A stretch of DNA of 64,000 nt from an uncultured Actinomycetota bacterium (GTDB taxonomy: Bacteria; Actinomycetota; Acidimicrobiia; Spongiisociales; UBA5794): positions 91,817-155,816 of the forward strand of contig CAVOXF010000001.1 in the NCBI GenBank assembly GCA_963700375.1, read 5' to 3'. Position 1 is the stretch's first letter. Each line of letters begins with the position of its first letter. The position numbers were made by a program, and so were the translations under genes. Under the pieces are notes generated by a model. It was not told where the DNA came from. It was given only the letters and a program-made list of their open reading frames with translations, and made no database searches. Positions 12,033 to 56,844 of this stretch are shown here, one piece after another.

Positions 12033-12200
12033 CGGGCACAACCTATCCCAGAACACGGAGAAGGGCCATCCGGAGGGGGTCGCCGGTCGCGAGTCGCGAG
12101 TCGCCAGAAGGAGAAACGAGGGACTGCGAGCTGCGAAGTGTCCACCAAACCGGGTCAACTACAACGCAAGCGGAGGAGTGGGTCCGGCGACTTGAGGCTC

Positions 12201-28005: not shown

Positions 28006-28281
28006 GGAGGCGCAGAGGAACCCGCCGACTTCCCGACGAGCCCCGATGGCGGAGCCTCCAGCGAGCGAATCCGCCGGTACCAGTCAGGTTCGGCTATGGT
28101 TCGTGGGCCGCACCGGGTGGAGGTCAGCGCTTCGTCGCTTCCCCGGTGGTCTACGGCAGAGTTTCTCACCCGGTTGGACCGCCTCTTCGGCCGACGCTCG
28201 ATCACACAGGCATTGGTGCCCGTCGTTCGAGTCGGAGATCGGCCAATACATCAACGTTCCCAACCGGGATCAGGAGTCATC

Positions 28282-37810: not shown

Positions 37811-38560
37811 TCAGGCCTCGTCGAGCCAGACGCCGACGGGATCCTGTTCGGAAACAACGACCCCACCGAGCACTTCTTCGCTGACCGCGAGGCCGGCAAG
37901 TTGGCCTTCGACGCGGAATGCGGTGATGTCGGGACGGTTCCCCATGAGACCGACAGAGATCACGCGTTCACCGACGATCGCCCAGAGCTGGTAGGTGCGA
38001 TTCTCGGCGAGCGTTGGGAGAGCGCTGCCGTCGATGAAGCCCTCTCCGTCCGTCGTGACGACGACGTCTGCGACGACAGTTCCGCCAGCCGGATCGACCA
38101 GGTCGACGGTCAACGATCCGGGGAGTTCCGCCGACGCGAGCGCAAGCGCTTCGAGGCCTTTGGGCTCCGACTGATTCTGATTCACCAGCAGACCGGCGGT
38201 CAGGGAGACGGCAACCGCGACGGCGGCGACACTTCCGATGATCGGGGCGAGACGGCGCCACGGCGATCGACGAGGAGCATCGACATCGGGAGCATCGGCG
38301 TCGGGAGCATCGGCGGGAGGCAGGCCCGGGGAGGATTCCAGACCTGCCGCCAGCGCGATGCGATCCCACAACTGAGGCGAGGCTGCGGGCACAACGTCGG
38401 AGAATCCCTCGACGAGATCGGCGGCAACCTCTCGGTAGGCCTCGTACTCGTCGCTCAGTTCGTCATCGAAATCGATTGCGACCGATACGAGGGCGCTCTC
38501 GTCCTCTGGGAGGGCGTTGAGGGCGTGCGCCGCGACTGCGTCGTCGAGGTTCTGGCTCAT
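37811..38560 (-). CDS. membrane-spanning anti-sigma factor (RskA-like)
   Basis: Acidic N-terminal sigma-binding region, a single TM (IIGSVAAVAVAVSLTAGLLV) and an extracytoplasmic C-terminal domain. It is translationally coupled to the upstream ECF sigma. Confidence 0.6.
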   Translation of the reverse strand: MSQNLDDAVAAHALNALPEDESALVSVAIDFDDELSDEYEAYREVAADLVEGFSDVVPAASPQLWDRIALAAGLESSPGLPPADAPDADAPDVDAPRRSPWRRLAPIIGSVAAVAVAVSLTAGLLVNQNQSEPKGLEALALASAELPGSLTVDLVDPAGGTVVADVVVTTDGEGFIDGSALPTLAENRTYQLWAIVGERVISVGLMGNRPDITAFRVEGQLAGLAVSEEVLGGVVVSEQDPVGVWLDEA

Positions 38561-39219
38561 GCGAGGACAAGGGCTTCCTCACCGAGTAGCTCCTTCAGGC
38601 GGCTCATGCCCCTGCGGATGCGGCTCTTGACGGTGCCTTCCGGCAGGTCGAGGGCTTCGGCCACTCGGCGATACGAGTGTCCCTGGAAGAACGCAAGGGC
38701 AATGGGCAGACGCTCGTCTGGCTCCAGCGTTTCGAGGGCATGTCGGATTCGTTCCGATGAGATTCTCTTCATGACTTCTTCTTCGAGACTCATCGGGGAG
38801 TTGGATGACGCCGAAAGCTGCTGCTCACGGATTTCTCGATCGGCCCGTGCCCGCTCGGAGCGGAGCAGATCGACCGACCGGCCGTGCGCATCGAGCTGGA
38901 GGAAGCCACTCAGGCTCCCCCGGCTGGGGTCGAAGCGCTCGGGGCGTTGCCAGATGCGGACGAACACTTCTTGGACCACGTCCTCGGCCAATTCCGAACG
39001 ACGGAGCACGCCGAATGCCGTGCGGTACACCTTCTGGCCGAACCGCCGGTATGCCTCGCTGAGCGCCTCTTCACGCTGGTCGAGGAGCGCCTCCCAGAGA
39101 TGACGGTCCTCTGAGGACTCGGAGATTCGGTGCGGAGCGGTCGGGGCAAGAACCGGTGCCGTGGCTCCGATCTCCCGTGCGGCGGTGAGTGTCATGTGTG
39201 GTCTCCAGTCAGTGGTCAT
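38557..39219 (-). CDS. ECF-type RNA polymerase sigma factor
   Basis: Sigma-70 region 2 (AEDVVQEVFVRIWQ) and region 4 (SYRRVAEALDLPEGTVKSRIRRG). The start is probably ATG 39195. Confidence 0.8.
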   Translation of the reverse strand: MTTDWRPHMTLTAAREIGATAPVLAPTAPHRISESSEDRHLWEALLDQREEALSEAYRRFGQKVYRTAFGVLRRSELAEDVVQEVFVRIWQRPERFDPSRGSLSGFLQLDAHGRSVDLLRSERARADREIREQQLSASSNSPMSLEEEVMKRISSERIRHALETLEPDERLPIALAFFQGHSYRRVAEALDLPEGTVKSRIRRGMSRLKELLGEEALVLA

Positions 39220-39464
39220 TGTTTAGTGCTAAATGACTTAGTTAGTAAATATACACACGAATTCGGATACCGCAAATGGTTTTCGGAGATTTCTTCGCGA
39301 GAGGCTGAAGAGCGAACGCGAAAGCCTTGTGGGGTAAGGGTCGCGAGGTAGGCTCATCCGTCCGACCATTGCCGCCAAGGACGGCGTTGGCGCCCCCCAC
39401 ACCGTTCTTGCGCAACTATGGGAAGCCCGCTTCCACTATCTACGCAAGAACGGTGGAGGGTGGC

Positions 39465-39899
39465 CTAGGAGGACAGGGTCTGAGCGAACCGCCTCAGGTT
39501 TCGCTGCCAGATCCACCTCAGCACCGGGGCGGCGAAGAGCGCGGTCGCTCCTCCGCCGAGGTACCAGGGGAACGCCAGGTCTTCGAGCCAGACGAAGCGG
39601 GTCCCGCCTTCGGTCGGCACCAACACGAATACACCAATGCCGGTGACCAGGCCGCGGTGGGTGACGCCGATGCTCTCCCCCTCGATCCAGGACCGTACCG
39701 AGATGACATCATTGGTCACGAACGGACCGACGCGCGTCCTCACAATCATCTCGGTTCCAATGCCGCGGCGCTGATCGTCGGCGAAGTCGATCCGCTCGGC
39801 ATCGGTCATCCATTCAGAATGCTGCTCGAGCTTGGAGAGCTCTGCCCACACCTCGGATGTCGGCAGGGGCAGGTCGACGGACGCCACGATCAGCGTCAT
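39465..39899 (-). CDS. SRPBCC (START/Bet v1-like, polyketide_cyc2) family protein
   Basis: About 145 aa with an SRPBCC fold signature (SEVWAELS...W). Confidence 0.6.
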   Translation of the reverse strand: MTLIVASVDLPLPTSEVWAELSKLEQHSEWMTDAERIDFADDQRRGIGTEMIVRTRVGPFVTNDVISVRSWIEGESIGVTHRGLVTGIGVFVLVPTEGGTRFVWLEDLAFPWYLGGGATALFAAPVLRWIWQRNLRRFAQTLSS

Positions 39900-40879
39900 G
39901 GCCGTTCGACCGGATCCGGCCATCCCACCGGTGGTGTCCACCCGGTGGCCTCGCACAGAAACTGCCACAGCGCATCGTTTCCGGCATCACCGACGGCGGT
40001 TCGCTTCAGGCGGTGCTTCGACCGCGGGCGACGGTCCATCCAGAACTCCCCCGAAGAGCCGAGAGCGTCCGAATCAGACGCCAACCAGACGATCGTGTCG
40101 GCGCCCTGATCGGCGTTGCGCAAGAGCGGCCCCATGACCCGGCGGAACGTTGGGAGGGATGCGGCAACACCAGGGGTACTCACCCAGCCCGGATGCATCG
40201 AATGGGCCACCACTCCCGTACCGGCGAGCCGATCGGCCCAGATATCGGTCAGCACCACCTGCGCACGCTTCGTCCGCGCGTACGCGGCGGAACCGCCGTA
40301 TTCCTCGGGGCTCATTTCGATGCCCGAGACATCGAGCGCTTCGGTATACATGCCGCCGGACGACACGGTAATGATCCTCGCCGGTGCACTTTCCACCATG
40401 CGCGGGATCAGGAGATTCGTGAGCAGGAAGGTGCTCAGGAGATTCGTGGCGAGTGTGAGTTCGAAGCCGTCGGCGCTCGTCGACCGTTCAGGGGCGAGCA
40501 CCGAGGCGTTGTTGACGAGCACGTCGATCCGCCGTTCGCCGGCGAGCAGCTCATCGGCCAGGCGGTGAACCTGCTCGAGAGACGAGAGATCGGCACGATA
40601 CGCGGTAGCCCCGTCGACAGTTGACACCTCCGAAACCCCTGCCACAGCCTCGTCGAGCTTCTCCTGGTTCCGCCCAACGAGAACCACACGAGCCCCGAGA
40701 GCCGCCATCTGACGCGCCGCCGCGAGGCCGATCCCGGAAGTGGCACCGGTGATGACCGCGGTGGCTCCATCCATGCCGTCCATGCCCGCATCCCAGTCTC
40801 CGGATCGCAGGCGATACCCGATGTTCGTGAAGCTGCCGACAATCGACCCTTCGAGGATTCCGTCAGTCGTAAGTGCCAT
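39896..40879 (-). CDS. SDR family oxidoreductase
   Basis: TGATSGIGLAAA Rossmann motif, NNAS, and a YxxxK-type catalytic region. Confidence 0.8.
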   Translation of the reverse strand: MALTTDGILEGSIVGSFTNIGYRLRSGDWDAGMDGMDGATAVITGATSGIGLAAARQMAALGARVVLVGRNQEKLDEAVAGVSEVSTVDGATAYRADLSSLEQVHRLADELLAGERRIDVLVNNASVLAPERSTSADGFELTLATNLLSTFLLTNLLIPRMVESAPARIITVSSGGMYTEALDVSGIEMSPEEYGGSAAYARTKRAQVVLTDIWADRLAGTGVVAHSMHPGWVSTPGVAASLPTFRRVMGPLLRNADQGADTIVWLASDSDALGSSGEFWMDRRPRSKHRLKRTAVGDAGNDALWQFLCEATGWTPPVGWPDPVERP

Positions 40880-41331
40880 CAGCCGCCCTCTTTGGTCGAG
40901 AGTTCGCGCAGTCTCCGGTCGAGGCCTTCGACTGCGCCATCCCCGATCTTGCGGAGGAGCTTCCCGAGAAACGGTTCGGCGACGCGATAGATGCCCTTCA
41001 TCCGGATATCGGCGTGATACTCGACCGAAGTTCCCCGAGCAGACGGGAGGAAGGAGATACGGTCCACCGCAAAGGTGCGTTCGCCGTCACCTTCGAGGAC
41101 AACGCGACGCGGCGGATCCCACTCGGTGATGCGGTAGGTCATCGTGATCGGCGAGCTGCCGTAGCTCAGGTCGAGATCGTACGCGGTCCCAACGGACGGT
41201 GGGCCGTCCGTCATCTTCCGCACGGCAGTCACGCCGGGGTCCCATTCAGCGATGTTCTCAAAGTCGGCGACATAGTCGAACGCCGCCTCGACATGGAGGT
41301 CGGTCTCGACGGTCTCTGTGATAACTGGCAT
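40879..41331 (-). CDS. SRPBCC family protein
   Basis: 150 aa polyketide_cyc2-like protein (FDYVADFENIAEWDPGV). Confidence 0.6.
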   Translation of the reverse strand: MPVITETVETDLHVEAAFDYVADFENIAEWDPGVTAVRKMTDGPPSVGTAYDLDLSYGSSPITMTYRITEWDPPRRVVLEGDGERTFAVDRISFLPSARGTSVEYHADIRMKGIYRVAEPFLGKLLRKIGDGAVEGLDRRLRELSTKEGG

Positions 41332-41415
41332 GGTGGCCTCTCAGGATGGGCTCGGTATTGGTAGTGCTTCGAGACACGCTGCCGTCTTGGATGACGGGAC
41401 ATCCACGAACCGGCT

Positions 41416-43533
41416 GTGCTTCGAAGTACCGCCGACATGAGCACTGCACAGAAGAACATCGCCGTCATCGGCTCAGGGGTCTCGGGTCTGGGCGCTGCGT
41501 GGTCGTTGAGCCAGAGACACAACGTCACGCTCCTTGAGCGTGACCGACGCATCGGCGGTCACGCCAGAACCATCGACGTATCGATGGGAGACCGAATGGT
41601 TCCAGTCGACACCGGCTTCATCGTCTTCAACCATCGCAACTACCCGAACCTGACCAACCTCCTCGAGACGCTGGACGTGGCGACCGAAGCGACCGACATG
41701 TCGTTCTCGGTGAAGAGCGGCCGATATGAGTTTGCTGCAACCCCTAGTGCTCTGATCTCGAATCCCCGCCACCTGACCTCTCGCCGTACCTGGGCGATCC
41801 TGCGCGGCATCAACCGGTTCCGCAAGGACGTCGCCAACCATGCGGCGGTGGCCACCTCAGACTCGACCCTCATCGACTACCTCAGAGACGCCAACTACCC
41901 AGAGCCGTTCATCACCGACTACCTCCTGCCCCTGGCTGCAGCGGTGTGGTCGGGAGCCGGATCCGATGCTGCCTCCATGCCGGTGGGAACGTTCCTGCAT
42001 TTCCTCGCCAACCACGGTCTCTTCGAATTGGAGCGGCCCAGGTGGCGCACGATTTCCGGAGGCAGCCGCGAGTACGTCGATCGAATCTCCAAAGAGATCA
42101 CATCGGTGCGCACCGGAGTCGATGTCACCTCGGTCAAGCGAGTGACCGGCGGCGTCGAGGTCGAGACACCAGACGGCCTCCTGCGCTTCGACGATGTCGT
42201 CATTGCAGCGCATGCGCCGCAGACCGTCGAGCTCCTGGCCAACGACCTCGCTGCCGACGAGCGCGACATCCTCGGCACGTTCAACTACGCACCCAACCGT
42301 GCGGTTGTCCATCGCGACCCGTCGTTCATGCCCCGGCGCAAGGCGGCATGGTCGGCGTGGAACGCCGCCGGCACCGCCCCGGGATCCGATCAACCCGTCT
42401 CGGTCACGTACTGGATGAACCGACTCCAGAATCTCGACGAACGCCACGACGTCTTCATCACACTCAATCCGGAAACGGAACCTCTCGAGATCATCGACGA
42501 CATCTGGTACGCACACCCCCAGTTCAGCCCGGACACCGATCGGGCCCAGCAACGCCTCCCCGAGATCCAGGGACGCGGCGGCGTCTGGTACGCCGGAGCG
42601 TGGACCGGGTACGGCTTCCACGAAGACGGACTTCAGTCCGGCCTGACGGTGGCCGCCGCGCTCGGATCACCCGCTCCCTGGCACGACGACATCGTGCCGG
42701 CCACGCCGGCGGCGATCCATAGCGCTCCCGCCAATGGCCGGGGCTGCGGTATGACCTCCATCGCGAACTCGGCCATCTACGAGGGCACCACGACGCACGT
42801 CCGGCGGAAGCCGTTCGAGCATCGCCTGCAGTACGGTCTGTTCTCGCTGCTCGTCGATCTGGACGAACTCGATGATCTCGCCGAACTCCGATTCTTCTCG
42901 CACAATCGGAAGAACCTGATCAGCTTCTACGACGAGGACCATGGCGGTCGCGACGGCAGTCGAATCTCCGCGTGTGGATTACGGACGAACTGGCGAGGGC
43001 CGGTTTTGACGGAATCGCCCGGCAGGATTCGCCTGCTCTGCCTTCCCCGCATTGCCGGATACGAGTTCAATCCGTTGACCGTCTGGTTCATCGACGACGC
43101 CGAAGGAAACCCTCGCTGGATCATGTACGAGATCCACAACACATTCGGCGAGGCCCACTCGCATCTCGTCGAGGTCGACGGCGCCAACCACCACCGGCAC
43201 GGGTTCCGCAAGGAGTTCTTCGTCTCGCCGTTCTTCGACGTGGAGGGCGGATACCGGGTCCGGATCACCCAGCCGGGAGACCGGATGTCCGTCGCCATCA
43301 CCTACGTGGTCGACGATGAGACCGTCTTCACGGCGACCCTCACGGGCAGGAGGCTTCCACTCACTTCGAGGACCTTGCTTGGAGCCACCATTCGCTACCC
43401 GCTCATAACGTTCAAGATCATGGGCGCCATCCATTGGGAGGCGGCCAAGTTGTGGCTCAAGGGTGCCCGCTACCGCAAGCGTCCCACGGCACCAGTTGAC
43501 GCCGTCTCCGTTTCGACGAAGATGGCCGCATGA
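41416..43533 (+). CDS. COG2907 NAD/FAD-dependent oxidoreductase fused in-frame to a DUF1365 domain
   Basis: The N-terminal ~440 aa carry IAVIGSGVSGLGAAW...GGHARTIDV (COG2907). From MTSIANSAIYEGTTTHVRRKPFEHRLQY onward the sequence is a full DUF1365. There is no stop between the two parts. Confidence 0.75.
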   Translation: MLRSTADMSTAQKNIAVIGSGVSGLGAAWSLSQRHNVTLLERDRRIGGHARTIDVSMGDRMVPVDTGFIVFNHRNYPNLTNLLETLDVATEATDMSFSVKSGRYEFAATPSALISNPRHLTSRRTWAILRGINRFRKDVANHAAVATSDSTLIDYLRDANYPEPFITDYLLPLAAAVWSGAGSDAASMPVGTFLHFLANHGLFELERPRWRTISGGSREYVDRISKEITSVRTGVDVTSVKRVTGGVEVETPDGLLRFDDVVIAAHAPQTVELLANDLAADERDILGTFNYAPNRAVVHRDPSFMPRRKAAWSAWNAAGTAPGSDQPVSVTYWMNRLQNLDERHDVFITLNPETEPLEIIDDIWYAHPQFSPDTDRAQQRLPEIQGRGGVWYAGAWTGYGFHEDGLQSGLTVAAALGSPAPWHDDIVPATPAAIHSAPANGRGCGMTSIANSAIYEGTTTHVRRKPFEHRLQYGLFSLLVDLDELDDLAELRFFSHNRKNLISFYDEDHGGRDGSRISACGLRTNWRGPVLTESPGRIRLLCLPRIAGYEFNPLTVWFIDDAEGNPRWIMYEIHNTFGEAHSHLVEVDGANHHRHGFRKEFFVSPFFDVEGGYRVRITQPGDRMSVAITYVVDDETVFTATLTGRRLPLTSRTLLGATIRYPLITFKIMGAIHWEAAKLWLKGARYRKRPTAPVDAVSVSTKMAA

Positions 43534-44755
43534 CGAAGCCGACGACGCCCCGAACAGCACGCGCCATCCCAACGGTTCTCCGCCGCCTCGTGCGCGCAGG
43601 CACACTCCACGCCGACATTGAAGGCTCCATCGTCGACATCTCGGGCTCGGAAGCAGGCATCGAGGCGTGGATCACGATCAGCGACGCCGACGCGGTCGCC
43701 TCCCGCGTCCTGCGGACGGGTGGTGTGGGATTCGCCGAGGCCTATATCGATGGCCTGTGGGACACGACGGATCTGGCGACGCTACTCGAGTTCGCTGCCG
43801 AGAATCACGACCTCCGACGCCACACCGCTGTGTGGGAGACCGCCATGCGAACGTCACGGTCGGCGTGGGACCGCCTGCGCGGGGCCACCGGCACGTCCGC
43901 CGTCCAAACCATGGTCGAGCACTACGACCTCGGCAACGAGTTCTACGCCGCATGGCTCGATCCCTCGATGAGCTACTCGTCCGGCATCTTCACGAACGGC
44001 GCCGACCTCAATGCCGCCATGCGTACGAAGTACGAACGGATCGCGGCGCGTGCCGGCATCCAAGCCGGCGACCGCGTGCTCGAGATCGGGTGCGGGTGGG
44101 GAGCCATGGCCGAGTACGCGGCCGGGGAACTGGGATGCACGGTCACCGCGGTGACGATCTCGAAGGAACAGCACGACTACGTCGTCCGCCGCATGAAGAA
44201 CGCCGGGCTGGACGACCGAGTGAGGTGCTCCTCTCTGACTTCCGCGACATCGAAGGCGAGTACGAGCGGGTCATCTCGATCGAGATGATCGAGTCGATCG
44301 ACGAGGGATCTTGGGTCGACCTCTACGACGTGATCAGCCGATCACTCGTTCCCGGCGGCTCCGCCGCCCTGCAGGCGATCACCATCGATCACGACCTCCA
44401 CACGCAGATGATCGGTCGCGATGAGTTCATCCGTGCCTACATCTTCCCTGGTGGCGCACTCCCATCGACGAAGATCCTCCGCCAACTCGGCGAAGGCGCC
44501 GGTCTCGAGTGGATCGGCCTCTCGACCCACGGAACCAGCTATGCGAGGACCCTCCAGGCGTGGGATGAACGATTCGTCGCGGCGTGGCCCGTGATCGCCG
44601 AACAGTCAGATCGCTTCGACGAGCGGTTCTACCGGATGTGGCGCTACTACCTGGCCTACTGCATCGCAGGGTTCAGGAGTGGTCGCATCGACGGCGTCCA
44701 GGCGGTGTACCGCAAGCCGGGCACCGTTCTTGGCGATCCGTCGGTCACCTCCTGA
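43530..44755 (+). pseudogene. cfa: cyclopropane-fatty-acyl-phospholipid synthase with a -1 frameshift near 44222
   Basis: N-terminal part lies in frame of 43530 (SAM MTase motif VLEIGCGWG). The C-terminal part (VLLSDFRDIEGEYERVISIEMIESI) lies in frame of 43667. Restoring one G in GTG(G)AGGTGC reconstitutes DDRVEVLLSDFRD. Confidence 0.7.
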
Positions 44756-44776
44756 CGGCGCGCCCAGGGGAGGCTT

Positions 44777-45607
44777 TCAACTCTTGGCGGCGTCGAGCAG
44801 CGTCTCAACGAGTTCGACCGCTCCGTCCCCGGTGGCTGCCCATCCGTCGGCACCGAGGCGAAGCGCAGTCTCTTCGTCTACGCCTCCCCCGCCCACGACG
44901 ATCGGCACCGAAGTCACCGCACGGATTGCGGACAGCGTCTCGCCGAGCGCCTCTTCTTGACCCGGCGTCGTGACGCCGACACCGACAGCAACCAGGTCAT
45001 CGGTCTTCTCGACGAACGACGCGAACGAATCCGGGGGAAGGTAGGCGCCGAGATCGATCACTTCGAACTGCGATGCCCGGAAGAGGTCGGTTGCCATGGC
45101 GAGCGGCAGGGAGTGCAACTCGGTTGCGGTCGAGCCGAGGACGACGGTCCCGCGCCGCACGCCGCGCCTGGCAAGGCGCGGGCCGAGACGAGCGACGATC
45201 CGGGCCGCCACCTCGGAGGCAGAATGCTCGGTGGCGACGTCGATCTCCCCCATCGACCAGGCCTCACCGACGCGCTTCATCGATGGGGAGAGCACGGACG
45301 GGTACGCCTCGGGGATCGTCATACCGGAGCTGAAAGCCGCTTCGAGCACGCCCCATGCCCCGGCCTCGTCCGCGGCCAGAAGGCGGTTGAAGAAGCGATC
45401 GGCCCAGTCGGCCTCACCCCGCTGCGTGCGCGGCTCGTCCTTCGCCAGGTACACGTTCAGATCGGAGCGATGGATGCGCCAGGTCCGGCCTTCCCGGCGT
45501 GCCGGGAGGATTCCGAGGCGTACGTATCGATAGGCGGTCATGTAGTGCACGCCGAGGATCTCGGCGACCTCGTGCAAGCTCAGCTCGTCGGGTTCGGTGT
45601 TCTCCAT
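44777..45607 (-). CDS. CarH/LitR-like regulator: MerR/excisionase-type HTH plus cobalamin (B12)-binding domain
   Basis: N-terminal HTH (LSLHEVAEILGVHYMTAYRYV), then a B12-binding_2 helical bundle (GEAWSMGEIDVATEHSAS), then a B12-binding Rossmann domain (LGSTATELHSLP...VVGGGGV). Confidence 0.7.
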   Translation of the reverse strand: MENTEPDELSLHEVAEILGVHYMTAYRYVRLGILPARREGRTWRIHRSDLNVYLAKDEPRTQRGEADWADRFFNRLLAADEAGAWGVLEAAFSSGMTIPEAYPSVLSPSMKRVGEAWSMGEIDVATEHSASEVAARIVARLGPRLARRGVRRGTVVLGSTATELHSLPLAMATDLFRASQFEVIDLGAYLPPDSFASFVEKTDDLVAVGVGVTTPGQEEALGETLSAIRAVTSVPIVVGGGGVDEETALRLGADGWAATGDGAVELVETLLDAAKS

Positions 45608-45786
45608 TTAGTAGGAAGATACCATGACCGCTTCGTTTCTGGAAGCTTCGAGGCATACGTTCACCCGTATCTCGCAGCCACTCGCAGAAGAGACTTGCTT
45701 CCCCTCATCCACCCATCACACCTGCTTCGTATAGAGAGTGTCCGCATGGTGCGGATTTAGTAATAAGTCTGAAAGGACATCCTCAC

Positions 45787-46851
45787 ATGAAGAAGCGATT
45801 CTCGATCCTTGCTCTCCTGTTGGCGTTCGCCATGATCGTGGCGGCCTGCAGCAGTGACAGCGAAGACACCACGACGACGGAACCCGTCATGGAAGAACAG
45901 TCGGTGCTCGACCTCGCGATCGAGGCGGGTCAGTTCTCAACGCTGATCGCGGCCATCGATGCTGCCGGTCTCTCCGAGACCCTCGAAGGCGAAGGGCCGT
46001 TCACGGTTCTCGCACCCACCGACGCAGCATTCGACGCCGCGTTCGAAGCCCTCGGCATCACTGCAGCGGATCTGCTCGCCGATACGGAGACCTTGACCGC
46101 CATCCTGACCTATCACGTACTGCCGCAGGCAGCAGACTCGCAATTGGTCGCGACCCTCGACGGCAGCTCAGTACCGACCGTCAACGGTCAGTCGGTCGAC
46201 ATCAGCGTCGTCGCTGGTCAGATCATGATCAACGAAGCGACCGTGGTCTCAGCCGACCTCATCGCCGACAATGGCATCGTGCATGTCATCGACGCCGTGC
46301 TCCTTCCGCCGGACATTGCCGAAGCCCTCGGCGTCGCGATGGCCGATGACATGGAAGAAGAGACCACCACAACGACCGAAGCCACGACCACCACAACCAC
46401 GGAAGCCATGGCTCCAACGATCGCTGAGATCGTTGCCGAGGCGGCCGCAGGCGACCCGGCCGAGTTCACGGTGCTCCTCGCAGCGCTCGAGACGGCCGAC
46501 CTGGTCGACGCCCTCAGCGGCGAAGGCCCGTTCACCGTATTCGCCCCGACCGATGCAGCCTTCGCTGCGCTTCTCGACGACCTCGGCATCACCGCTGAGG
46601 AACTCCTGGCAAACCCTGACCTGGCGAACATCCTGCTGTACCACGTGGTCAGCGGTGAGTTCCTGGCCGCGGACGTCATCGACCTCGCACCGGTCGACGT
46701 TCCGACGCTCTACGAAGAGAACACGATCTCGATCGCGGTTGTCGACGGAAGCGTCGTGATCAACGATGTGGCGACCGTCGTCAGCCCTGACGTGATGGCC
46801 GGCAACGGCGTCATCCACGTCATCGACGCGGTGCTCGTCCCGGCGAGCTGA
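45787..46851 (+). CDS. secreted lipoprotein with two fasciclin (FAS1) domains
   Basis: Lipobox LAFAMIVAAC. The FAS1 module is duplicated (GPFTVLAPTDAAF...IVHVIDAVLLP occurs twice). Confidence 0.85.
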   Translation: MKKRFSILALLLAFAMIVAACSSDSEDTTTTEPVMEEQSVLDLAIEAGQFSTLIAAIDAAGLSETLEGEGPFTVLAPTDAAFDAAFEALGITAADLLADTETLTAILTYHVLPQAADSQLVATLDGSSVPTVNGQSVDISVVAGQIMINEATVVSADLIADNGIVHVIDAVLLPPDIAEALGVAMADDMEEETTTTTEATTTTTTEAMAPTIAEIVAEAAAGDPAEFTVLLAALETADLVDALSGEGPFTVFAPTDAAFAALLDDLGITAEELLANPDLANILLYHVVSGEFLAADVIDLAPVDVPTLYEENTISIAVVDGSVVINDVATVVSPDVMAGNGVIHVIDAVLVPAS

Positions 46852-46857
46852 CGGTCT

Positions 46858-46888
46858 CCGATGCGGGGCGCCCTTTCTCCCGCATCGG
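46858..46888. terminator. terminator hairpin (10-bp stem CCGATGCGGG/CCCGCATCGG)
   Basis: Read from the sequence, 7 nt after the fasciclin stop. Confidence 0.5.
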
Positions 46889-46896
46889 CTACAGAA

Positions 46897-46932
46897 GAGA
46901 AGGGGCCGGCACCAGTCAGCCGGCCCCTTCTC
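46897..46932. terminator. terminator hairpin (14-bp stem GAGAAGGGGCCGGC/GCCGGCCCCTTCTC), with a T-rich tail on the minus strand
   Basis: Read from the sequence. It is positioned to terminate the minus-strand heliorhodopsin transcript. Confidence 0.55.
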
Positions 46933-46968
46933 CGCGTCTTGAACCACTCCGCGCCCGAGTTCAGGTCC

Positions 46969-47730
46969 CTACGGAGCGAGCGTGCCGGCGAACACCTGCC
47001 ACGCCAGGGCGCTCTTGGCCAGCAGGCTCAGCAGGATGTACGTACGCTCGCCGGTGAGATAGTTGCTCCACCGCCCGACCTGCTTGTACTGCAGCAACTG
47101 GATGATTGCGAACGCGTTGAAGAACAGGAAGAGCGACACGAAGATCCCGTAGACGAATCCCGGGGGCTGAGCTTCGCTGCCGGGCGACACGAGATAGATG
47201 CCGATGGCGATCCATGGCACGATGCCCAGAACGACGCCGAGCCAGAACGGCCACAGCGAACCGCCGGGGGTTTCGTAGCGCTCTTGGACCGATCCGAAGA
47301 AGATCATCCCGGCGTTGACGCCGAAGAGCGCGATCAACGCGACGATGTCGGAGATCCCGGGCAGCATCGCGATGAGAACGATCATCACCGACGATGAGAT
47401 GGAGTACTCGATCCACCGGAATTGGTTCTGTCCGCGAGACAGCTGATCCCGGTACCGGCCGGATCCGACACTCGCGACGATGAAGTGGAAAAGCGCCGAG
47501 AGGAACAGGAATGTCGCTACTCCCCAGCCGATCGACACTTCGAACAGTGTCGTTGTCGGCGATGGCGTTCCGGGGGGCCCCTCGAGGAACGCCGCTGTCA
47601 CCGGCAGGGCGAAATCGGTCGCCAGAAACAGGATCAGGATGGCTTGGAGCAGGTGCAAGCCGCCCATCCCCCAGTTGTACATCTTGAGGCGACTGAATTC
47701 AGCGTCAGTCACCTGAACGTTCGAGACCAT
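46969..47730 (-). CDS. heR: heliorhodopsin
   Basis: Collinear identity blocks with heliorhodopsin 48C12: TDFALPVTA, LSALFHFIVAS, FRWIEYSISSSVMIVLIA (counterion Glu) and DIVALIALFGVNAGM. The C-terminal WSNYLTGERTYILLSLLAKSALAWQ carries the retinal Lys. ATG at 47730, with GAGGAGGG upstream. Confidence 0.85.
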   Translation of the reverse strand: MVSNVQVTDAEFSRLKMYNWGMGGLHLLQAILILFLATDFALPVTAAFLEGPPGTPSPTTTLFEVSIGWGVATFLFLSALFHFIVASVGSGRYRDQLSRGQNQFRWIEYSISSSVMIVLIAMLPGISDIVALIALFGVNAGMIFFGSVQERYETPGGSLWPFWLGVVLGIVPWIAIGIYLVSPGSEAQPPGFVYGIFVSLFLFFNAFAIIQLLQYKQVGRWSNYLTGERTYILLSLLAKSALAWQVFAGTLAP

Positions 47731-47840
47731 GGAGGCCCTCCTCGGATACGCGTCATGGTTGCGAAGATGCGCCCCAGTCAATGCGCCGACTCCGCGTGGC
47801 CGCACTGTATACGAGTCGAGGCCCGACGCAACCACAGCAC

Positions 47841-48293
47841 TCAGACCCGCGGCGCGTACCGGGCGTTCGCGAACGGCCAGATATCGCGGAGCCAGTCGGT
47901 GAGTGCCCGATGGACGACGGCGTCCATCTCGGATCGGCTCTCCCGAACCCAGGAGCTCACGTCGGCATCATGGCCCGGCGCCGCCGACGGGTAGATGTAG
48001 ACACAGCCGATGACCGCATCTCCGTCGAGGATCGAATACGTGAAACCCTCGCGGTTCTCGAAATCCTCGTAGTGGCCGGCGAGATCCGCACGATTCGCCT
48101 CCAGGCTCATCGGGGTCGGCCAACCCCGCTCCTCACCGAAGCCGGGAGTCGAGCGGATGTGCTCGATGCTCGACATCCAGGCGTCATAGTCGCGTTCGTT
48201 GTGCTGTTCCCCAAGCGGCTCCAGGCGGAAGCCGGGTCCGTCGAACGCAACCGGCACCTCGAACGAGGGCGGGACGAAGGAACCGTCCGTCAT
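47841..48293 (-). CDS. GNAT-like N-acetyltransferase family protein
   Basis: FRLEPL...YDAW...VIGCVYIYP pattern. Start assumed at MTDGSF. Confidence 0.5.
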   Translation of the reverse strand: MTDGSFVPPSFEVPVAFDGPGFRLEPLGEQHNERDYDAWMSSIEHIRSTPGFGEERGWPTPMSLEANRADLAGHYEDFENREGFTYSILDGDAVIGCVYIYPSAAPGHDADVSSWVRESRSEMDAVVHRALTDWLRDIWPFANARYAPRV

Positions 48294-48321
48294 CGCGGCG
48301 TCCCCGGCGAACAAGCCATCA

Positions 48322-48567
48322 TCAGGTTGGCAGCGGTTCACCGGATTCGGGTAGCGCAGCCCGCCGGCGACCCAAGACCAGATACGCCGCCGCACCGGGT
48401 GGCGTTCCCGCGACCACTCGCCAGAGGAAGACCGGACCGCGAACCGCTTCTGGTTGCCTTCGCCGCAGATCTCGCTGCGCCAGGAAGATCAACAACGCAG
48501 CGACCACCCATCCGATGACCATCCCAACAGGCGACGGACGCCGGTGCAGGTCTTCTGTCTCGTTCAT
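48322..48567 (-). CDS. small membrane protein with PLD-nuclease N-terminal (PLDc_N)-like domain
   Basis: Strong SD GAGGAGAAG upstream of ATG 48567. A TM helix is followed by RRR...LVLGRRR, as in PLDc_N. Confidence 0.4.
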   Translation of the reverse strand: MNETEDLHRRPSPVGMVIGWVVAALLIFLAQRDLRRRQPEAVRGPVFLWRVVAGTPPGAAAYLVLGRRRAALPESGEPLPT

Positions 48568-52127: not shown

Positions 52128-52197
52128 GGTGTGAAATCGGAATCGGGGGCGAGGCTTGCGGCCCCACCCCCGATCTCCTTCATAGGTTGATACTGCT

Positions 52198-52989
52198 TCA
52201 GTTGCCGCGTCGTGCGAGGGTGAGACCTCCGCCGACCGCAATCGTGGCGATGACCAGCATGCCGGCGACCACCCCGAGCGGCATGCCGCTCTCGACTGGG
52301 CTGTTGCCCGTAGGCACGGCCTCGGGGGCAGCGCCAAGGCCGGTGATCGACTCGGTGAGGACGGTTAGTGAACCAGCCTCGAGCGATCCCACGGCGTAGA
52401 CGATCAGCGACTCGCCATCCTTGACCGCGATATCCGCCGGGCCAATGACGACAGGCTCATCGGCACCGGTCGGGACGACCTCGACGCTGTAGGTAGCGGC
52501 GGGCAGGTCGGCCTTCGCTTCGTTCGGGTTGCTCAGGTTGCTGAACGCCACGGCGCCATCAGCCTTCACATCGACGGCCGGAGCGGCGGCAGTGTGACGG
52601 ACCTGAAGACGACCGTTGCCGGCATCGATTGCCGCGGTGTCGTTGGCGAACACGGTAATCGTCGGCGTACCGGCGGCATCGAGATTCGCGATGATCGAGT
52701 AGTTGCCCGAGCCCGGGAGGTCGACATCACCGGCGTCGATCGCGACGGTGTCGGTACCGGCAAGGACGACCTGGAGGCCGACCAGCGTGGCGCCGGCGAG
52801 CGACGACAGATCCTGCGTGTCACCGAAGTTGAAGTCGGCGAAGACGATTTCGCCGTCAACGACAACGTCAACGGGGGTATCCGGGATTCCGTGAATCAGG
52901 TGGATACGTGCTTCGCTCTGAGCCATTGCGGGTGCTGCAATTGCCAGAGTCATCAGGGTTGCGGCGAATACCGCAATGAGCTTCTTCAT
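52198..52989 (-). CDS. secreted DUF4397 protein with C-terminal hydrophobic anchor and basic tail
   Basis: Signal peptide MKKLIAVFAATLMTLAIAAPAMA. The C-terminus ...EAVPTGNSPVESGMPLGVVAGMLVIATIAVGGGLTLARRGN resembles a sortase sorting signal. Confidence 0.55.
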   Translation of the reverse strand: MKKLIAVFAATLMTLAIAAPAMAQSEARIHLIHGIPDTPVDVVVDGEIVFADFNFGDTQDLSSLAGATLVGLQVVLAGTDTVAIDAGDVDLPGSGNYSIIANLDAAGTPTITVFANDTAAIDAGNGRLQVRHTAAAPAVDVKADGAVAFSNLSNPNEAKADLPAATYSVEVVPTGADEPVVIGPADIAVKDGESLIVYAVGSLEAGSLTVLTESITGLGAAPEAVPTGNSPVESGMPLGVVAGMLVIATIAVGGGLTLARRGN

Positions 52990-53198
52990 CGTGCCCCTCC
53001 TTTAAGGGTTGCTTGCCCCTTCTACGGGGCCGCCACGACGGATGGATGAGATTTGGTGGCAACTTTCCTGCGTGGTGAGCCCCCCTCTCCTCCGGCGGGA
53101 ACGACCGGCACTTGCTACCCCGGGGATCGCACCTCGCTCCCACCAACGCCATCCGGCGTTCTTGACAGACACGAAGTAGGGTCGGAAGAGAGGTCGCA

Positions 53199-54683
53199 AT
53201 GAAGATCGCCGTCACCGGCGCAACCGGATACATCGGGGGACGGCTCGTCCCTCTACTCATCGCCGAGGGCCACGAGGTGGTCTGCCTGGCCAGGAACCCT
53301 GCGAAGCTCGCAGGCCGATCCTGGACGAAACAGGTCGAGGCGGTCACCGCCGACGTGCTCCAGCCCGACTCGCTCGAGGGCGCCCTGCGCGGCTGCGACG
53401 TCGCTTTCTACCTGGTCCATTCCATGGGGAGCTCCGACAGCTTCCGGGACGTGGACAAGGCGGCGGCCACCAATTTCGCGCAAGCGGCCGAGGACGCAGG
53501 TGTGACCCGCATCATCTACCTCGGCGGGCTGGGCGACGAAGACGACCACCTCTCGAACCATCTCGGCAGCCGGCACGAGGTCGGACGAGCGCTCGCCGCA
53601 GGACCGGTTCCGGTCACTGAGGTGCGTGCCGCGGTGATCATCGGATCGGGGTCTGTGTCGTTCGAGATGCTCCGCTACCTCACCGAAGTCCTGCCGGCGA
53701 TGGTCACACCTTCGTGGGTGCAGACCCGCTGCCAGCCGATCGCTATTCGCGATGTTCTTCTCTATCTCGTCGCGTGTCTCGACGAAGACCAGGGCGGTCA
53801 CACCGTCTACGAGATCGGCGGACCCGAGGCACTCTCCTACCTGGAGATGATGCATGCGTATGCCAAGGTGGCAGGACTCCCCCGCCGCTTCGTGGTACCG
53901 GTTCCGGTGTTGAGCCCGCGACTCTCCTCCCTGTGGATCGGACTCGTGACACCACTCCCGGTGGGAGTCGCCCGACCCCTCGTCGACTCGCTCAAGAACG
54001 AGGTGATCGTTCATGACGACACCGCGCGTCGTCGCTTCGACATAGCACCGACACCCCTCACCCGGGCGATCGAGAGGGCTCTGGAGCACAGCCAGGACCT
54101 CAGCGTCGACACCCGATGGTCGGATGCGACGACAGGACCGGCCCAACCGTTCGAAGGTGATCCTGCGTGGAGCGGCGGAACGCTCTTCGTCGACCACCAG
54201 ACGGTGACCACCGTCGCGGACCCGGCCGATGTGTATTGGTCGTTTGCCCGGATCGGAGGTGACGTCGGCTACCACGGGTACAACTGGGCTTGGAGGCTCC
54301 GGGGAATTCTCGACATCGTGTTCGGCGGCGTCGGGCTGCGGCGCGGACGCCGCCACCCGGAGGACCTCCGACTGGAAGACACCGTGGACTTCTGGCGGGT
54401 CACCGGCGTTGAACCCGGGCACCGACTCCAATTGTCCGCCGAGATGCGCTTGCCGGGCGATGCCTGGCTCGAATGGAGCACGGAACGCGAGAACGGTCGG
54501 ACGCTGCTCCACCAGAGTGCATACTTCCGGCCGCGCGGGCTAAGTGGTCGCCTCTACTGGTACGCGCTCCTCCCCTTCCACGGATTCATCTTCGGAAACA
54601 TGGCTCGACAGATCGCCGCGACCGCCGAGCGTCGAGACCGCATCGCCCCGACAGCGCCCCCACCGTCGGACGGCCTCGAGTGA
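53199..54683 (+). CDS. NmrA-like NAD(P)-binding (atypical SDR) domain fused to DUF2867
   Basis: N-terminus KIAVTGATGYIGGRLVPLL. The C-terminal half matches the DUF2867 pattern. It is translationally coupled to the photolyase gene (GTGA overlap). Confidence 0.7.
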   Translation: MKIAVTGATGYIGGRLVPLLIAEGHEVVCLARNPAKLAGRSWTKQVEAVTADVLQPDSLEGALRGCDVAFYLVHSMGSSDSFRDVDKAAATNFAQAAEDAGVTRIIYLGGLGDEDDHLSNHLGSRHEVGRALAAGPVPVTEVRAAVIIGSGSVSFEMLRYLTEVLPAMVTPSWVQTRCQPIAIRDVLLYLVACLDEDQGGHTVYEIGGPEALSYLEMMHAYAKVAGLPRRFVVPVPVLSPRLSSLWIGLVTPLPVGVARPLVDSLKNEVIVHDDTARRRFDIAPTPLTRAIERALEHSQDLSVDTRWSDATTGPAQPFEGDPAWSGGTLFVDHQTVTTVADPADVYWSFARIGGDVGYHGYNWAWRLRGILDIVFGGVGLRRGRRHPEDLRLEDTVDFWRVTGVEPGHRLQLSAEMRLPGDAWLEWSTERENGRTLLHQSAYFRPRGLSGRLYWYALLPFHGFIFGNMARQIAATAERRDRIAPTAPPPSDGLE

Positions 54684-56017
54684 GCTCGCTGGTCTGGTTC
54701 CGACGGGATCTTCGCCTCTCAGAGAATCCGGCGTGGGCGGCAGCGACCACAGAACACGATGCTGTGGAAGCCCTATTCGTCCTCGACCAGCGACTGCTTT
54801 CGCTCGCGGGCAGCCTTCGACGCAATCTCCTGTTTGCCCATCTCGGTGCACTCGATGCCGAGCTGCGCAGACGTGGTGGCTGCCTCAGAGTGGAGACCGG
54901 GAGCCCGGGGGCCATCGTTCCCGCCATCGCGGCCGAGCACGACGCCGTCTACTGGAATCGCTCGTATACGCCGTTCTCGAGCCGGCGGGACGCCGAAGTA
55001 GCAGCGGCAATTGCACGGCCGATCGAAGCCTTCGACGGAGATGTGGTGCACCCCCCTGAGGCAGTGTTGACCGGGGGTGGTACGCCCTACCGAGTCTTCA
55101 CGCCGTACTACCGCAGGTGGAGCCAGACGCCGATCGAGCGGTCGCCGCGTGCGGGTGCAGCCGCCGTTCTCGGGCGGACCACCACCGGGACCCCGGTCGC
55201 CGAAGCACCCATCATGCTTGCCGGCGAGGCGGGCGCCCGCGAACGGTTGGAGCGGTTCATCGAGATCGTGGATCGCTACGAAGAGGACCGCGACCGACCC
55301 GACTTCGATCGGACATCCCATCTCTCAGCCGATCTGAAGTTCGGCACGATCTCGGCCCGCGCCGTGGCCGAGCGAGTCGGCGGGTCGACGGGCGGACGTC
55401 GCGCATTCGTCCGCCAACTTGCGTGGAGGGATTTCTACGCGCAGGTTCTCTTTCATTCCCCCTGGACGATCGACCATGCATACCGCGAGGATCTCGATTC
55501 GATCGCGTGGGCCAACGACGACACGGCTGTTCAGGCGTGGCAGGAAGCCAAGACCGGCTACCCGATCGTCGATGCCGGCATGCGTCAACTCCGGCTCGAG
55601 GGCTGGATGCACGGGCGAGTGCGCATGATTGCTGCTTCGTTCCTCGTCAAGGATCTTGGCATCGACTGGCGGGTCGGCGAGCGCCACTTCCGCCGGCTCC
55701 TCATCGATGCCGATCCGGCACAGAATGTCGGCAACTGGCAGTGGGTTGCAGGGACCGGCGCCGACGCGGCTCCGTACTTTCGCATCATGAACCCGGTTGC
55801 GCAGAGTCGGCGCTTCGACCCTGACGGTGCCTACATCCGCCGGTACGTTCCGGAACTGGCAGCGCTGGACGGTTCCAGTATCCACGCACCGTGGGAACGC
55901 CCGCTCGAGACGTCGGCAGCCGGCATCGTCCTCGGTACGGACTACCCCTATCCGATGGTCGACCACGGCGAAGCGCGTGAGATCACCTTGCGGCGCTTCG
56001 GAGCCGCCCGGGCCTGA
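54680..56017 (+). CDS. phr: deoxyribodipyrimidine photo-lyase (CPD photolyase)
   Basis: N-terminus LVWFRRDLRLSEN. The FAD-binding region (WRDFY, NWQWVAG, TGYPIVDAGMRQL) is present. Confidence 0.88.
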   Translation: MSSLVWFRRDLRLSENPAWAAATTEHDAVEALFVLDQRLLSLAGSLRRNLLFAHLGALDAELRRRGGCLRVETGSPGAIVPAIAAEHDAVYWNRSYTPFSSRRDAEVAAAIARPIEAFDGDVVHPPEAVLTGGGTPYRVFTPYYRRWSQTPIERSPRAGAAAVLGRTTTGTPVAEAPIMLAGEAGARERLERFIEIVDRYEEDRDRPDFDRTSHLSADLKFGTISARAVAERVGGSTGGRRAFVRQLAWRDFYAQVLFHSPWTIDHAYREDLDSIAWANDDTAVQAWQEAKTGYPIVDAGMRQLRLEGWMHGRVRMIAASFLVKDLGIDWRVGERHFRRLLIDADPAQNVGNWQWVAGTGADAAPYFRIMNPVAQSRRFDPDGAYIRRYVPELAALDGSSIHAPWERPLETSAAGIVLGTDYPYPMVDHGEAREITLRRFGAARA

Positions 56018-56079
56018 CCACGAGAAGCATCGGACCCGTCGGGCATGGGCCAGAATGCACCGCAACCGAACCGCACATC

Positions 56080-56844
56080 ATGGAGGACCGCACAATGCGA
56101 CGAGTACTGATGATCGCCGGAGCTGTCCTCAGCGTGATCGTTGCACTCCTCATCGCCGCCGCCCTGATCCTCCCCAGGATTCTGATGCAGGGCCCGATGC
56201 CCGAGGCGCTCGTCGCCATGGAATCGACCGCCACCGTGGTCGTGGTCGACGGCAAGCCGATCACGTTCACTCCGACGGAGCCAACCTCGATCGGCGTGAT
56301 CGTCTACCCGGGTGCCTTCGTGGAGCCACGATCATACGCCCCGGCAGCGCACGCCCTCGCAGAAGATGGGGCGTTCGTCGCGATCGTCCCCATGCCGTTT
56401 GGCGTCGCGATCCTCGGTGGCGATCGGGCCGATGACATCATCAAGGATCACCCGGAGGTGACCGACTGGGTCATCGCCGGCCACAGCCTCGGCGGAGTGA
56501 TGGCAGCCCGCTACGCCGCCGAACACCCCGACGCCGTTGGCGGCCTTGTGTTGTGGGCCTCCTACCCGGAGGACTCGGTGGACCTCTCGGCGTGGACCGG
56601 CGCAACGGCATCGGTCTTCGGCACGCTCGACGGACTCACCACGGTCCAGGACATCGAGGATTCCCGGGCACTCCTGCCTGGAGATACGACGTTCGCCGGA
56701 ATCGACGGCGGCAACCACGCCTACTTCGGCTGGTACGGCGACCAGAGCGGCGACAACCCGGCAACGATCACCCGCGAGGAGCAGCAGCGCGCAGTCATCG
56801 ACGGGACGGCGGCGGTCGTGCGGCGCGTCACCGAGGTCGAATAG
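56080..56844 (+). CDS. alpha/beta hydrolase
   Basis: N-terminal TM and the nucleophile elbow IAGHSLGG. Confidence 0.65.
   Translation: MEDRTMRRVLMIAGAVLSVIVALLIAAALILPRILMQGPMPEALVAMESTATVVVVDGKPITFTPTEPTSIGVIVYPGAFVEPRSYAPAAHALAEDGAFVAIVPMPFGVAILGGDRADDIIKDHPEVTDWVIAGHSLGGVMAARYAAEHPDAVGGLVLWASYPEDSVDLSAWTGATASVFGTLDGLTTVQDIEDSRALLPGDTTFAGIDGGNHAYFGWYGDQSGDNPATITREEQQRAVIDGTAAVVRRVTEVE

Follow-up and report, generated by a model that had tools for sequence, protein, structure and literature searches.

We analysed a stretch of 64,000 nucleotides (nt) from an uncultured Actinomycetota bacterium (contig CAVOXF010000001.1), in the following called the window. The subject of the analysis is a trio of adjacent genes coding for a regulator with B12-binding domains (REG, 44777..45607, minus strand), a two-domain fasciclin lipoprotein (FAS1, 45787..46851, plus strand) and a heliorhodopsin (HeR, 46969..47730, minus strand). 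REG and FAS1 are divergent, FAS1 and HeR convergent. The trio is predicted to belong to an island of about 19 kb (37.8-56.8 kb) concerned with light and photo-oxidative stress, which also contains the genes of a sigma factor of the extracytoplasmic function (ECF) type and its anti-sigma factor. The best model for this island is probably a cascade resembling that from LitR to LitS, with FAS1 under dual control. A sequence-only reading of the same DNA had earlier pointed to the trio, and its proposals are taken up where the results bear on them.

Heliorhodopsin, regulator and fasciclin genes

The open reading frame (ORF) 46969..47835 on the minus strand matches the heliorhodopsin profile of Pfam (PF18761) with 326.9 bits (cutoff 26.7) over profile positions 1-242 of 242, and the NCBIfam equivalog NF038020 with 317.4 bits (cutoff 100). 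The alignment with heliorhodopsin 48C12 (PDB 6su3, E 2e-87) spans residues 9-253. In this alignment the counterion glutamate of transmembrane helix 3 (E107 in 48C12) corresponds to E108, the retinal Schiff-base lysine of helix 7 (K241) to K239, and the conserved histidines H23 and H80 to H26 and H82, the residues being counted from ATG 47730. The profile search which the sequence-only reading had proposed for its heliorhodopsin call bore the call out, and the alignment did so for the counterion Glu and the retinal Lys. That reading had also seen no gene for retinal biosynthesis in the window; likewise, no carotenoid or retinal biosynthesis family was found among about 50 window ORFs scanned, the small ORFs not being covered exhaustively. 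The start of HeR is more likely ATG 47730 than GTG 47835, because a GAGGAGG Shine-Dalgarno sequence precedes this ATG and the orthologue in L002 (homologous loci are given L numbers) is annotated at 253 aa, the length predicted here; the 105 nt at the 5' end of the ORF are therefore probably not coding. Directly upstream of HeR lies a GNAT-like acetyltransferase gene (47841..48395, minus strand) with a weak Pfam match (Acetyltransf_3, 22 bits, under the cutoff), and this pairing is kept in L008, L087, and L088.

REG codes for 276 aa with the Pfam domains HTH_17 (51.7 bits), B12-binding_2 (PF02607, 44.9 bits) and B12-binding (PF02310, 43.2 bits). The HTH_17 domain is of the excisionase type and belongs to the same superfamily as MerR, whose own Pfam model reached 16.6 bits against a cutoff of 28.2. 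The REG homologue of L094 (45% identity) scored 26.8 bits with MerR and 44 with HTH_17; as it nearly passes the MerR cutoff, there is no sharp boundary between the two domain families.

In an alignment of 20 homologues with 52-85% identity the residues G114xxW117, E127-H128, H165, and G187xxxP191 of REG are invariant. The stretch W117-x9-E127-H128 corresponds to the adenosyl-capping W-x9-EH motif of CarH and H165 to the lower axial histidine, so that the B12-binding His and Trp for which the sequence-only reading had asked are both present. Four signatures have been published for light-responsive cobalamin domains, GxxW, EH, GxxH, and GxxxP (PMC11796333), and REG carries three of them, GxxW, EH, and GxxxP. 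By sequence, the closest solved relatives are photocobilin and CtMerR B12 domains, followed by CarH (E 2e-6). An AlphaFold model of REG (pLDDT 88) was compared with solved structures using Foldseek; it aligned with the B12 module of photocobilin 8j2w at a root mean square deviation of 1.9 Å over 203 columns, and with full-length Thermus thermophilus CarH (TtCarH; 5c8d, 5c8e, and 5c8f), including the DNA-binding domain, over about 285 columns (E 1e-12 to 1e-13). Some REG homologues are annotated by JGI as 'light-induced transcriptional regulator'. We infer that REG binds B12 and is sensitive to light, and predict that it acts as a photoreceptor and repressor dependent on adenosylcobalamin (AdoB12) like LitR and CarH, yet forms a distinct subfamily. 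The previous designation as a MerR/B12 regulator of CarH type consequently stood with regard to CarH and LitR, as indicated by W117, E127, H128, H165, and the TtCarH fold, but not with regard to the Pfam MerR domain.

FAS1 contains two Fasciclin domains (PF02469, 216 bits). Its N-terminus, MKKRFSILALLLAFAMIVAAC, was judged by eye to be a lipoprotein signal with a lipobox cysteine (...AMIVAAC), in agreement with the divergent fasciclin lipoprotein proposed from the sequence. Its relatives in the PDB include TGFBIp, periostin, the R. sphaeroides-type protein 1w7d, AstaP 8c18, and MPT70 1nyo. Further solved relatives are astaxanthin-binding AstaP structures (22iy and 9wm8 besides 8c18), the phycobilisome linker LRC6 of red algae and the cyanobacterial protein CupS, so that FAS1 domains are seen repeatedly in contexts related to pigments or light.

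The spacer between REG and FAS1 (45608-45786) comprises 179 bp and has a GC content of 50%, compared with about 65% for the window, as expected from its previous description as AT-richer. Between the convergent genes FAS1 and HeR we found two perfect hairpins within 46858..46932, one at 46858-46888 with a 10-bp stem and one at 46897-46932 with a 14-bp stem. They are predicted to be bidirectional terminators, the function already assigned to the hairpins at this place.

Operator-like palindrome and ECF-type promoters

Homologues of REG were collected by a homologue look-up and by a scan of one genome per species with the REG alignment, which gave a regulator-centred set of 87 sequences including the window. 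The regions upstream of REG have a 14-bp palindrome in common, ATTTAGTRCTAAAT. In the 1.19 Mb of regulator-centred loci, 71 matches with at most two mismatches were observed against 0.13 expected from Markov simulations. All of them are intergenic and adjoin REG, the ECF sigma gene, FAS1, photolyase, SRPBCC/amine oxidase, or HeR.

With up to three mismatches the window contains two such sites, 0.39 being expected. The first, GTTTAGTGCTAAAT (39221..39234, one mismatch), lies 24 nt before the start codon of the ECF sigma gene, and over 20 related loci have the palindrome in front of their ECF gene. The second, ATTTAGTAATAAGT (45755..45768, two mismatches), is situated between the FAS1 promoter described below and the Shine-Dalgarno sequence, and a site is present at the same position in L002, L007, L087, L088, and L024. 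The FAS1-side palindrome overlaps the -10 element in L014 and a sigma-A-type promoter in loci of the L094 type; L094 itself has a perfect palindrome overlapping the spacer and the -10 element of TTGACA-N17-TAAATA just upstream of its FAS1-HeR-REG genes. In addition, a degenerate operator, ATTTAGTAGGAAGA (45606..45619, 10 of 14 positions), which was recognised by motif conservation, overlaps the start codon of REG. Here nearly all homologous loci share the sequence RCTAAATG, whose ATG is the REG start codon, and by inspection this sequence is preceded by a TANNNT box spaced as for a leaderless transcript; the transcription start of REG is predicted at A45607 or beside it. The heptamer TTTAGTA occurs twice in the 64 kb, both times in the REG-FAS1 spacer. 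The degenerate operator likely serves autoregulation. As the strongest candidate site for REG lies before the ECF sigma gene, a cascade is implied, and the palindromic nature of the site suggests that one dimer binds per site.

The ECF sigma gene (38557..39195, minus strand) codes for a protein of 212 aa with Sigma70_r2 and r4_2 domains. Its ORF extends to 39219, but ATG 39195 has a GGAG Shine-Dalgarno sequence and the L002 orthologue also comprises 212 aa. The closest structure in the PDB is SigK of Mycobacterium tuberculosis (4nqw, E 5e-18), followed by RpoE of R. sphaeroides (2q1z). The start of the next gene (37811..38560, minus strand) overlaps the sigma stop; it codes for an RskA-type anti-sigma factor of 249 aa with one predicted transmembrane segment (Pfam RskA_C, 43.7 bits; NCBIfam anti-sigma, 87.6 bits). 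The pair is found 5.6-7 kb to the left of the trio, where the sequence-only reading had placed an ECF pair at about 7 kb.

A second motif, CATCCR-N16-CGWA, matches exactly at six places in the window, where 0.8 would be expected. Five of the six copies are intergenic, correctly oriented and located 11-60 nt upstream of genes within one 16-kb stretch, and we regard them as putative ECF-type promoters. The copy CATCCA-N16-CGAA at 41368..41393 (minus strand) is an exact match 36 nt before the SRPBCC start of an SRPBCC-SDR operon, and a second one at 41400..41425 (plus strand), also exact, lies 11 nt before ATG 41437 of an operon coding for amine oxidase/DUF1365 and cyclopropane-fatty-acid (CFA) synthase. 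Exact copies of CATCCA-N16-CGTA precede FAS1 (45706..45731, plus strand) and a DUF4397-sortase unit (53023..53048, minus strand); the latter is preceded by a decayed operator which agrees in 9 of 14 positions, and in 12 of 14 in L002. Finally, CATCCG-N16-CGAA matches the motif at 53150..53175 (plus strand) before an NmrA/DUF2867-photolyase operon. In other loci, the motif was found at -46 to -57 in 8 of 11 FAS1 loci and at about -30 from HeR in L024, L089, L090, and L097. A scan with a generic sigma-70 model detected no promoter within 44600-48000, which fits promoters of the ECF type or leaderless ones. The sixth copy in the window, CATCCA-N16-CGAA at 38782-38807 (minus strand), is located within the coding region of the ECF sigma gene, about 220 nt before rskA. 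It could be a chance occurrence or else a promoter within the sigma gene from which the anti-sigma gene is transcribed in a sigma-dependent manner.

The consensus of the Streptomyces sigma factor LitS has been defined experimentally as GCATCCR-N15-CVGAAD (PMC11519972). The five intergenic copies, CATCCR-N16-CGWA, match this consensus. The promoter at 45706-45731 supports the previous suggestion that the SigK/RskA-like pair controls FAS1, if the motif is correctly assigned to the sigma factor. The related suggestion that FAS1 is a target of the CarH-like regulator agrees with the operator-like site at 45755-45768, but FAS1 would not be a simple target of REG, as the ECF-type promoter is present too.

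The sequence-only reading had also drawn attention to an inverted repeat, CCGCA-N3-TGCGG, in the REG-FAS1 spacer. The repeat is real (45742-45754) and forms part of a hairpin, TCCGCA-TGG-TGCGGA (45741..45755, plus strand), located where the FAS1 mRNA is predicted to begin, with a transcription start expected at about 45739-45741. The proposal that the repeat is the operator of REG on the FAS1 promoter would be in line with its location between promoter and ATG and with its presence in close relatives (the hairpin is kept in L002, L007, and L087). We consider this proposal very improbable, however. In distant loci the intergenic regions associated with REG lack the repeat but without exception have the AT-rich palindrome, so that the element conserved in the whole family is ATTTAGTRCTAAAT. 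Furthermore, the repeat would occupy positions +2 to +16 of the FAS1 mRNA, and the arms are changed to CTGC/GCAG in L008 and L088 (C-G to U-A) and to CCGA/TCGG at the same place in L024. These changes preserve base pairing, which an RNA stem explains better than an operator does. The covariation was not significant, its score being reached in 62 of 500 shuffles; it consists of one compensatory pair in two sequences and the analogous hairpin of L024. Judged from these sequences, the repeat is probably a 5' mRNA stem of FAS1 and not an operator.

Gene neighbourhood and predicted light-response cascade

Almost all relatives of the window are metagenome-assembled genomes of Acidimicrobiia or Ilumatobacteraceae. 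Partners near REG were counted by tblastn with the window proteins. The ECF sigma gene was the most frequent one (27 of the 87 loci), followed by SDR (20), amine oxidase/DUF1365 and SRPBCC (19 each), CFA synthase (16), FAS1 (12), and HeR and photolyase (10 each). The ECF sigma gene is often directly divergent from REG and is found in most loci with a REG identity of at least 49%.

A HeR-centred metagenome scan yielded 80 HeR loci, six of which have both REG and FAS1. The gene order of the window is also present in L087 and L088. In L094, L096, L101, and L113 the order is FAS1-HeR-REG on one strand, and L057 has the same order; HeR divergent from FAS1-REG (L075) and the arrangement of L024 bring the number of different gene orders to at least four. 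The triad therefore survives rearrangements, and it persists down to about 45% regulator identity. FAS1 adjoins HeR in most loci with REG and HeR, and among the 80 HeR loci no adjacency of FAS1 and HeR was found outside REG loci.

Other B12-binding regulators were seen near HeR as well. In L151 and L164, a canonical MerR_1-B12 protein of the LitR/CarH type (GxxW, EH, GxxH) is encoded at a distance of about 700 bp from HeR; in L131 the gene 545 bp from HeR codes for a B12-binding protein which has an XRE helix-turn-helix at its C-terminus. Three different architectures of B12 regulators thus flank HeR. L025 (3617-6187) contains REG, the ECF sigma gene, a gene for a cytoplasmic anti-sigma factor of 81 aa with zf-HC2 and RskA_N only, and HeR starting at the anti-sigma stop. 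As the anti-sigma factors of L025 and L003 are short (75-85 aa; 75 aa in L003) and accompanied by HeR, the idea that HeR replaces the membrane part of RskA was considered. The comparison across loci did not support it: the window, L002, L089, and L098 have both HeR and a full-length RskA, and in L028 short anti-sigma factors occur without HeR.

A branch of REG paralogues (42-48% identity) is located directly upstream of an ImuA'-like RecA-fold ORF, an ImuB-like Y-family polymerase (Pfam IMS) and probably DnaE2, with a small Nfu_N-like ORF in front. It comprises L036, L046, L050, L061, L074, and about 25 others of L029-L086, and the palindrome is retained in L062, L083, L084, and L067. This suggests a mutasome cassette controlled by B12 or light.

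In the cascade that we propose for the window, AdoB12-loaded REG would bind to ATTTAGTRCTAAAT-type sites in the dark and repress three targets, namely the REG gene itself, the ECF sigma operon of SigK/LitS type and, from the site just downstream of the FAS1 promoter, FAS1. In the light the Co-C bond would be photolysed, REG would leave the DNA and the ECF sigma factor would be made, its activity being gated further by the RskA-type anti-sigma factor. The sigma factor would then direct RNA polymerase to the CATCCR-N16-CGWA promoters of FAS1, the amine oxidase/DUF1365/CFA-synthase operon, the SRPBCC-SDR operon, the DUF4397-sortase unit and the NmrA/DUF2867-photolyase-hydrolase operon. Since FAS1 has both an ECF-type promoter and an operator downstream of it, its expression would need derepression as well as the sigma factor. 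HeR would be a neighbour of the regulon in the window and a direct member of it in other lineages.

The Streptomyces LitR-LitS system is similar in several respects. There, AdoB12-LitR keeps the divergent promoters of litR and litS repressed in darkness (PMC11519972), and in both systems the B12-binding repressor is encoded beside, and often divergent from, an ECF sigma gene. The promoter consensus is nearly identical and the two-step logic, predicted here, is the same. The window differs in that REG has HTH_17 and not the MerR domain of Pfam, that the operator is a 14-bp AT-rich palindrome and that the sigma factor has a membrane anti-sigma factor of the RskA type. The predicted output also differs: FAS1, lipid-modifying and oxidoreductase operons, photolyase and, in relatives, HeR take the place of carotenoid genes. 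Read most simply, the system is a B12 light switch of the LitR/LitS type in which the DNA-binding domain is another one and an RskA-type gate comes in addition.

With CarH of T. thermophilus and M. xanthus REG shares the three-module fold, the W-x9-EH motif with the lower axial His and the predicted role of a dark-state repressor, although its identity to TtCarH is 21-27% over the Foldseek alignments. The DNA sites of CarH are tandem direct repeats, to which it binds as a tetramer, whereas the site found here is a palindrome.

The mycobacterial SigK-RskA system, of the ECF19 type, is likewise comparable, having a SigK-like sigma factor with an RskA_C anti-sigma factor and FAS1 genes as targets, which are predicted as such here. 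The products of Rv0447c-Rv0449c at the M. tuberculosis sigK locus are a CFA-synthase-like enzyme, a DUF1365 protein and an amine oxidase, the trio also encoded at 41437-44755. The RpoE-ChrR regulon of R. sphaeroides includes cfaS and photolyase. The predicted outputs resemble known light and singlet-oxygen regulons. An mpt83-sigK-rskA cassette is reported to be conserved (PMC7509140), and the FAS1 genes mpk70 and mpk83 of M. kansasii are induced by light (PMC9861118). A B12 regulator upstream of mycobacterial sigK is not reported in the literature examined, and two mycobacterial loci are merged here into one island, to which HeR and photolyase are added.

Several observations weigh against the proposed cascade. 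With the NCBIfam CarH equivalog REG scored 54.7 bits (cutoff 400), and throughout the family two canonical motifs are varied, TxxH standing in place of GxxH (T, S, or A at position 162) and ExHxxP in place of ExHxxG, with P168 invariant. The ECF sigma factor scored 137 bits with NCBIfam SigK (cutoff 226) and has no cysteine in the region aligned to 4nqw, so that it lacks the redox Cys pair of M. tuberculosis SigK. Its palindrome in the window has no obvious sigma-A promoter around it, unlike those of L013 and L094. The assignments of the palindrome to REG and of the CATCCR motif to the ECF sigma factor are inferred from co-occurrence and analogy. Among the predicted targets, the CFA-synthase gene (43530..44755, plus strand) is split into two frames, with the CMAS halves in the ORFs 43530-44288 and 43667-44755, by a 1-nt deletion in a G-run near 44225 (GAGGGTG to GAGG-TG) compared with L001. 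In this metagenome contig, which is 99% identical, the CFA synthase is intact with 408 aa; the frameshift is either a homopolymer assembly error or a sign of a recent pseudogene. As for HeR, neither the palindrome nor the CATCCR motif was found within 150 nt upstream of HeR or upstream of the GNAT gene in the window. Regulon membership of HeR is therefore shown for sister lineages only, and the putative link between HeR and the regulator in this genome rests on neighbourhood conservation in other lineages. Of the 80 HeR loci, 10 have a B12-type regulator within 1.4 kb of HeR; among the 16 loci that extend 2.5 kb or more to either side, the number is 3.

The replaced glycines of GxxH and ExHxxG could mean that REG responds to cobalamin, with B12 availability or redox as the signal, and not to light; the island would then serve oxidative or envelope stress via SigK/RskA alone. 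B12-binding domains of the same fold have non-photochemical roles, for example in the corrinoid proteins which are the top NCBIfam matches of REG, and SigK/RskA of M. tuberculosis is linked to redox (PMC7826278). Yet the invariant W-x9-EH belongs to the published signatures of light-responsive cobalamin domains (PMC11796333), the closest solved structures are light sensors, and the promoter type is that of the light-specific sigma-LitS. As the predicted regulon moreover contains photolyase, HeR, and homologues of light-induced genes, a regulator insensitive to light appears unlikely to us.

The upstream region of HeR raises the question whether this gene is merely linked to the others within an island of stress genes, being transcribed from a constitutive promoter of its own or together with the GNAT gene and controlled neither by REG nor by the ECF sigma factor. 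Upstream of HeR and the GNAT gene the two motifs are lacking in L087, L002, L088, and L008 just as in the window, and a sigma-A-like TAsAGT box about 85 nt upstream of HeR is the sole conserved feature of these five loci; from this region HeR of the window seems to be transcribed from its own promoter. In addition, two strong hairpins insulate HeR from FAS1, and most HeR loci have no REG. On the other hand, several rearrangements of the locus have left HeR next to REG and FAS1. In sister lineages it has an ECF-type promoter or sits in an operator-controlled FAS1-HeR-REG operon (L094, L096, L101, L113), and MerR-B12 and B12-XRE regulators flank HeR too. Mere linkage is a possibility to be reckoned with, though in our view a less likely one than the cascade.

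The function of HeR is debated, and the published cases differ, comprising glutamine synthetase, photolyase, and ABC-transporter modulation. In the cascade, HeR is likely a membrane photoreceptor which modulates a partner protein of the light-stress response and not an ion pump. In surveys of HeR neighbourhoods, MerR-family regulators, SDR, and photolyase are among the frequent operon neighbours (Cho et al. 2024, PMC11109279) and HeR is tied to light-induced oxidative stress (Bulzu et al. 2021, PMC8612252). The island shares with the classes described there the MerR-superfamily regulator, SDR, photolyase, alpha/beta hydrolase, and oxidative-stress genes; the FAS1 partner, the B12 nature of the regulator, the ECF cascade, and explicit cis-elements were not found in the passages searched. 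Among the papers searched, none combines heliorhodopsin with fasciclin, LitR, or CarH.

FAS1 and HeR could also form a functional extracytoplasmic pair, in which light-induced FAS1 would bind a carotenoid or retinal and deliver or present the chromophore to HeR or act as its light-gated surface partner. Fasciclin-family AstaP proteins, which are among the solved relatives of FAS1, bind astaxanthin, and a pair of this kind would explain both the recurring FAS1-HeR(-REG) operon and the lack of retinal biosynthesis genes in the window. But co-regulation by itself explains the linkage of FAS1 and HeR, and nothing specific supports the pair. We hold this idea to be quite improbable.

If the cascade is correct, the locus places HeR in a testable wiring, consisting of a B12-type light switch with a 14-bp operator, a LitS/SigK-like sigma factor with its promoter and about five predicted target operons. 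It joins three separate literatures, those on the LitR-LitS switch, the SigK-MPT70/83 regulon, and the HeR neighbourhoods, and the model offers an explanation for the light induction of FAS1 antigens in M. kansasii. The HTH_17-B12 regulator and its short palindromic operator could serve as a compact green-light optogenetic switch in Actinobacteria.

Remaining genes of the island

To the left of the trio, a predicted operon (39465..41331, minus strand) codes for an SRPBCC protein (40879-41331), an SDR (39896-40879) and a second SRPBCC protein (39465-39899), as recognised by the profiles Polyketide_cyc2 and adh_short; this synteny is kept in L002, L007, and L009. Between the operon and the ECF sigma promoter region lies an imperfect inverted repeat of 32 nt (39395-39460, 78% complementary, 2-nt loop), which possibly terminates or attenuates transcription that would otherwise continue into the sigma operon. 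The amine oxidase is fused to DUF1365 (41437..43533, plus strand; Pfam Amino_oxidase and DUF1365) in one ORF of 698 aa. In L002 and L003 the two parts are separate genes (437 and 259 aa with a 4-nt overlap in L002), so that the ORF of the window could be either a gene fusion or the result of another indel.

To the right of the trio, the DUF4397 gene identified by Pfam (52198..52989, minus strand) is the first of the DUF4397-sortase unit; the sortase ORF (51444-52337) has a listed TTG start which overlaps DUF4397. Profile matches identified the genes at 53199..56844 (plus strand) as NmrA/DUF2867 (53199-54683), DNA photolyase (54680-56017), and alpha/beta hydrolase (56080-56844). An Rfam scan of the whole window gave nothing at the gathering thresholds, and therefore no cobalamin riboswitch. 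Unrelated to the island, the regions 28006-29805 and 10371-13940 code for a DEAD-box helicase with a C-terminal RRM_1 domain and for two adjacent LytR_cpsA_psr paralogues of about 590 aa, respectively.

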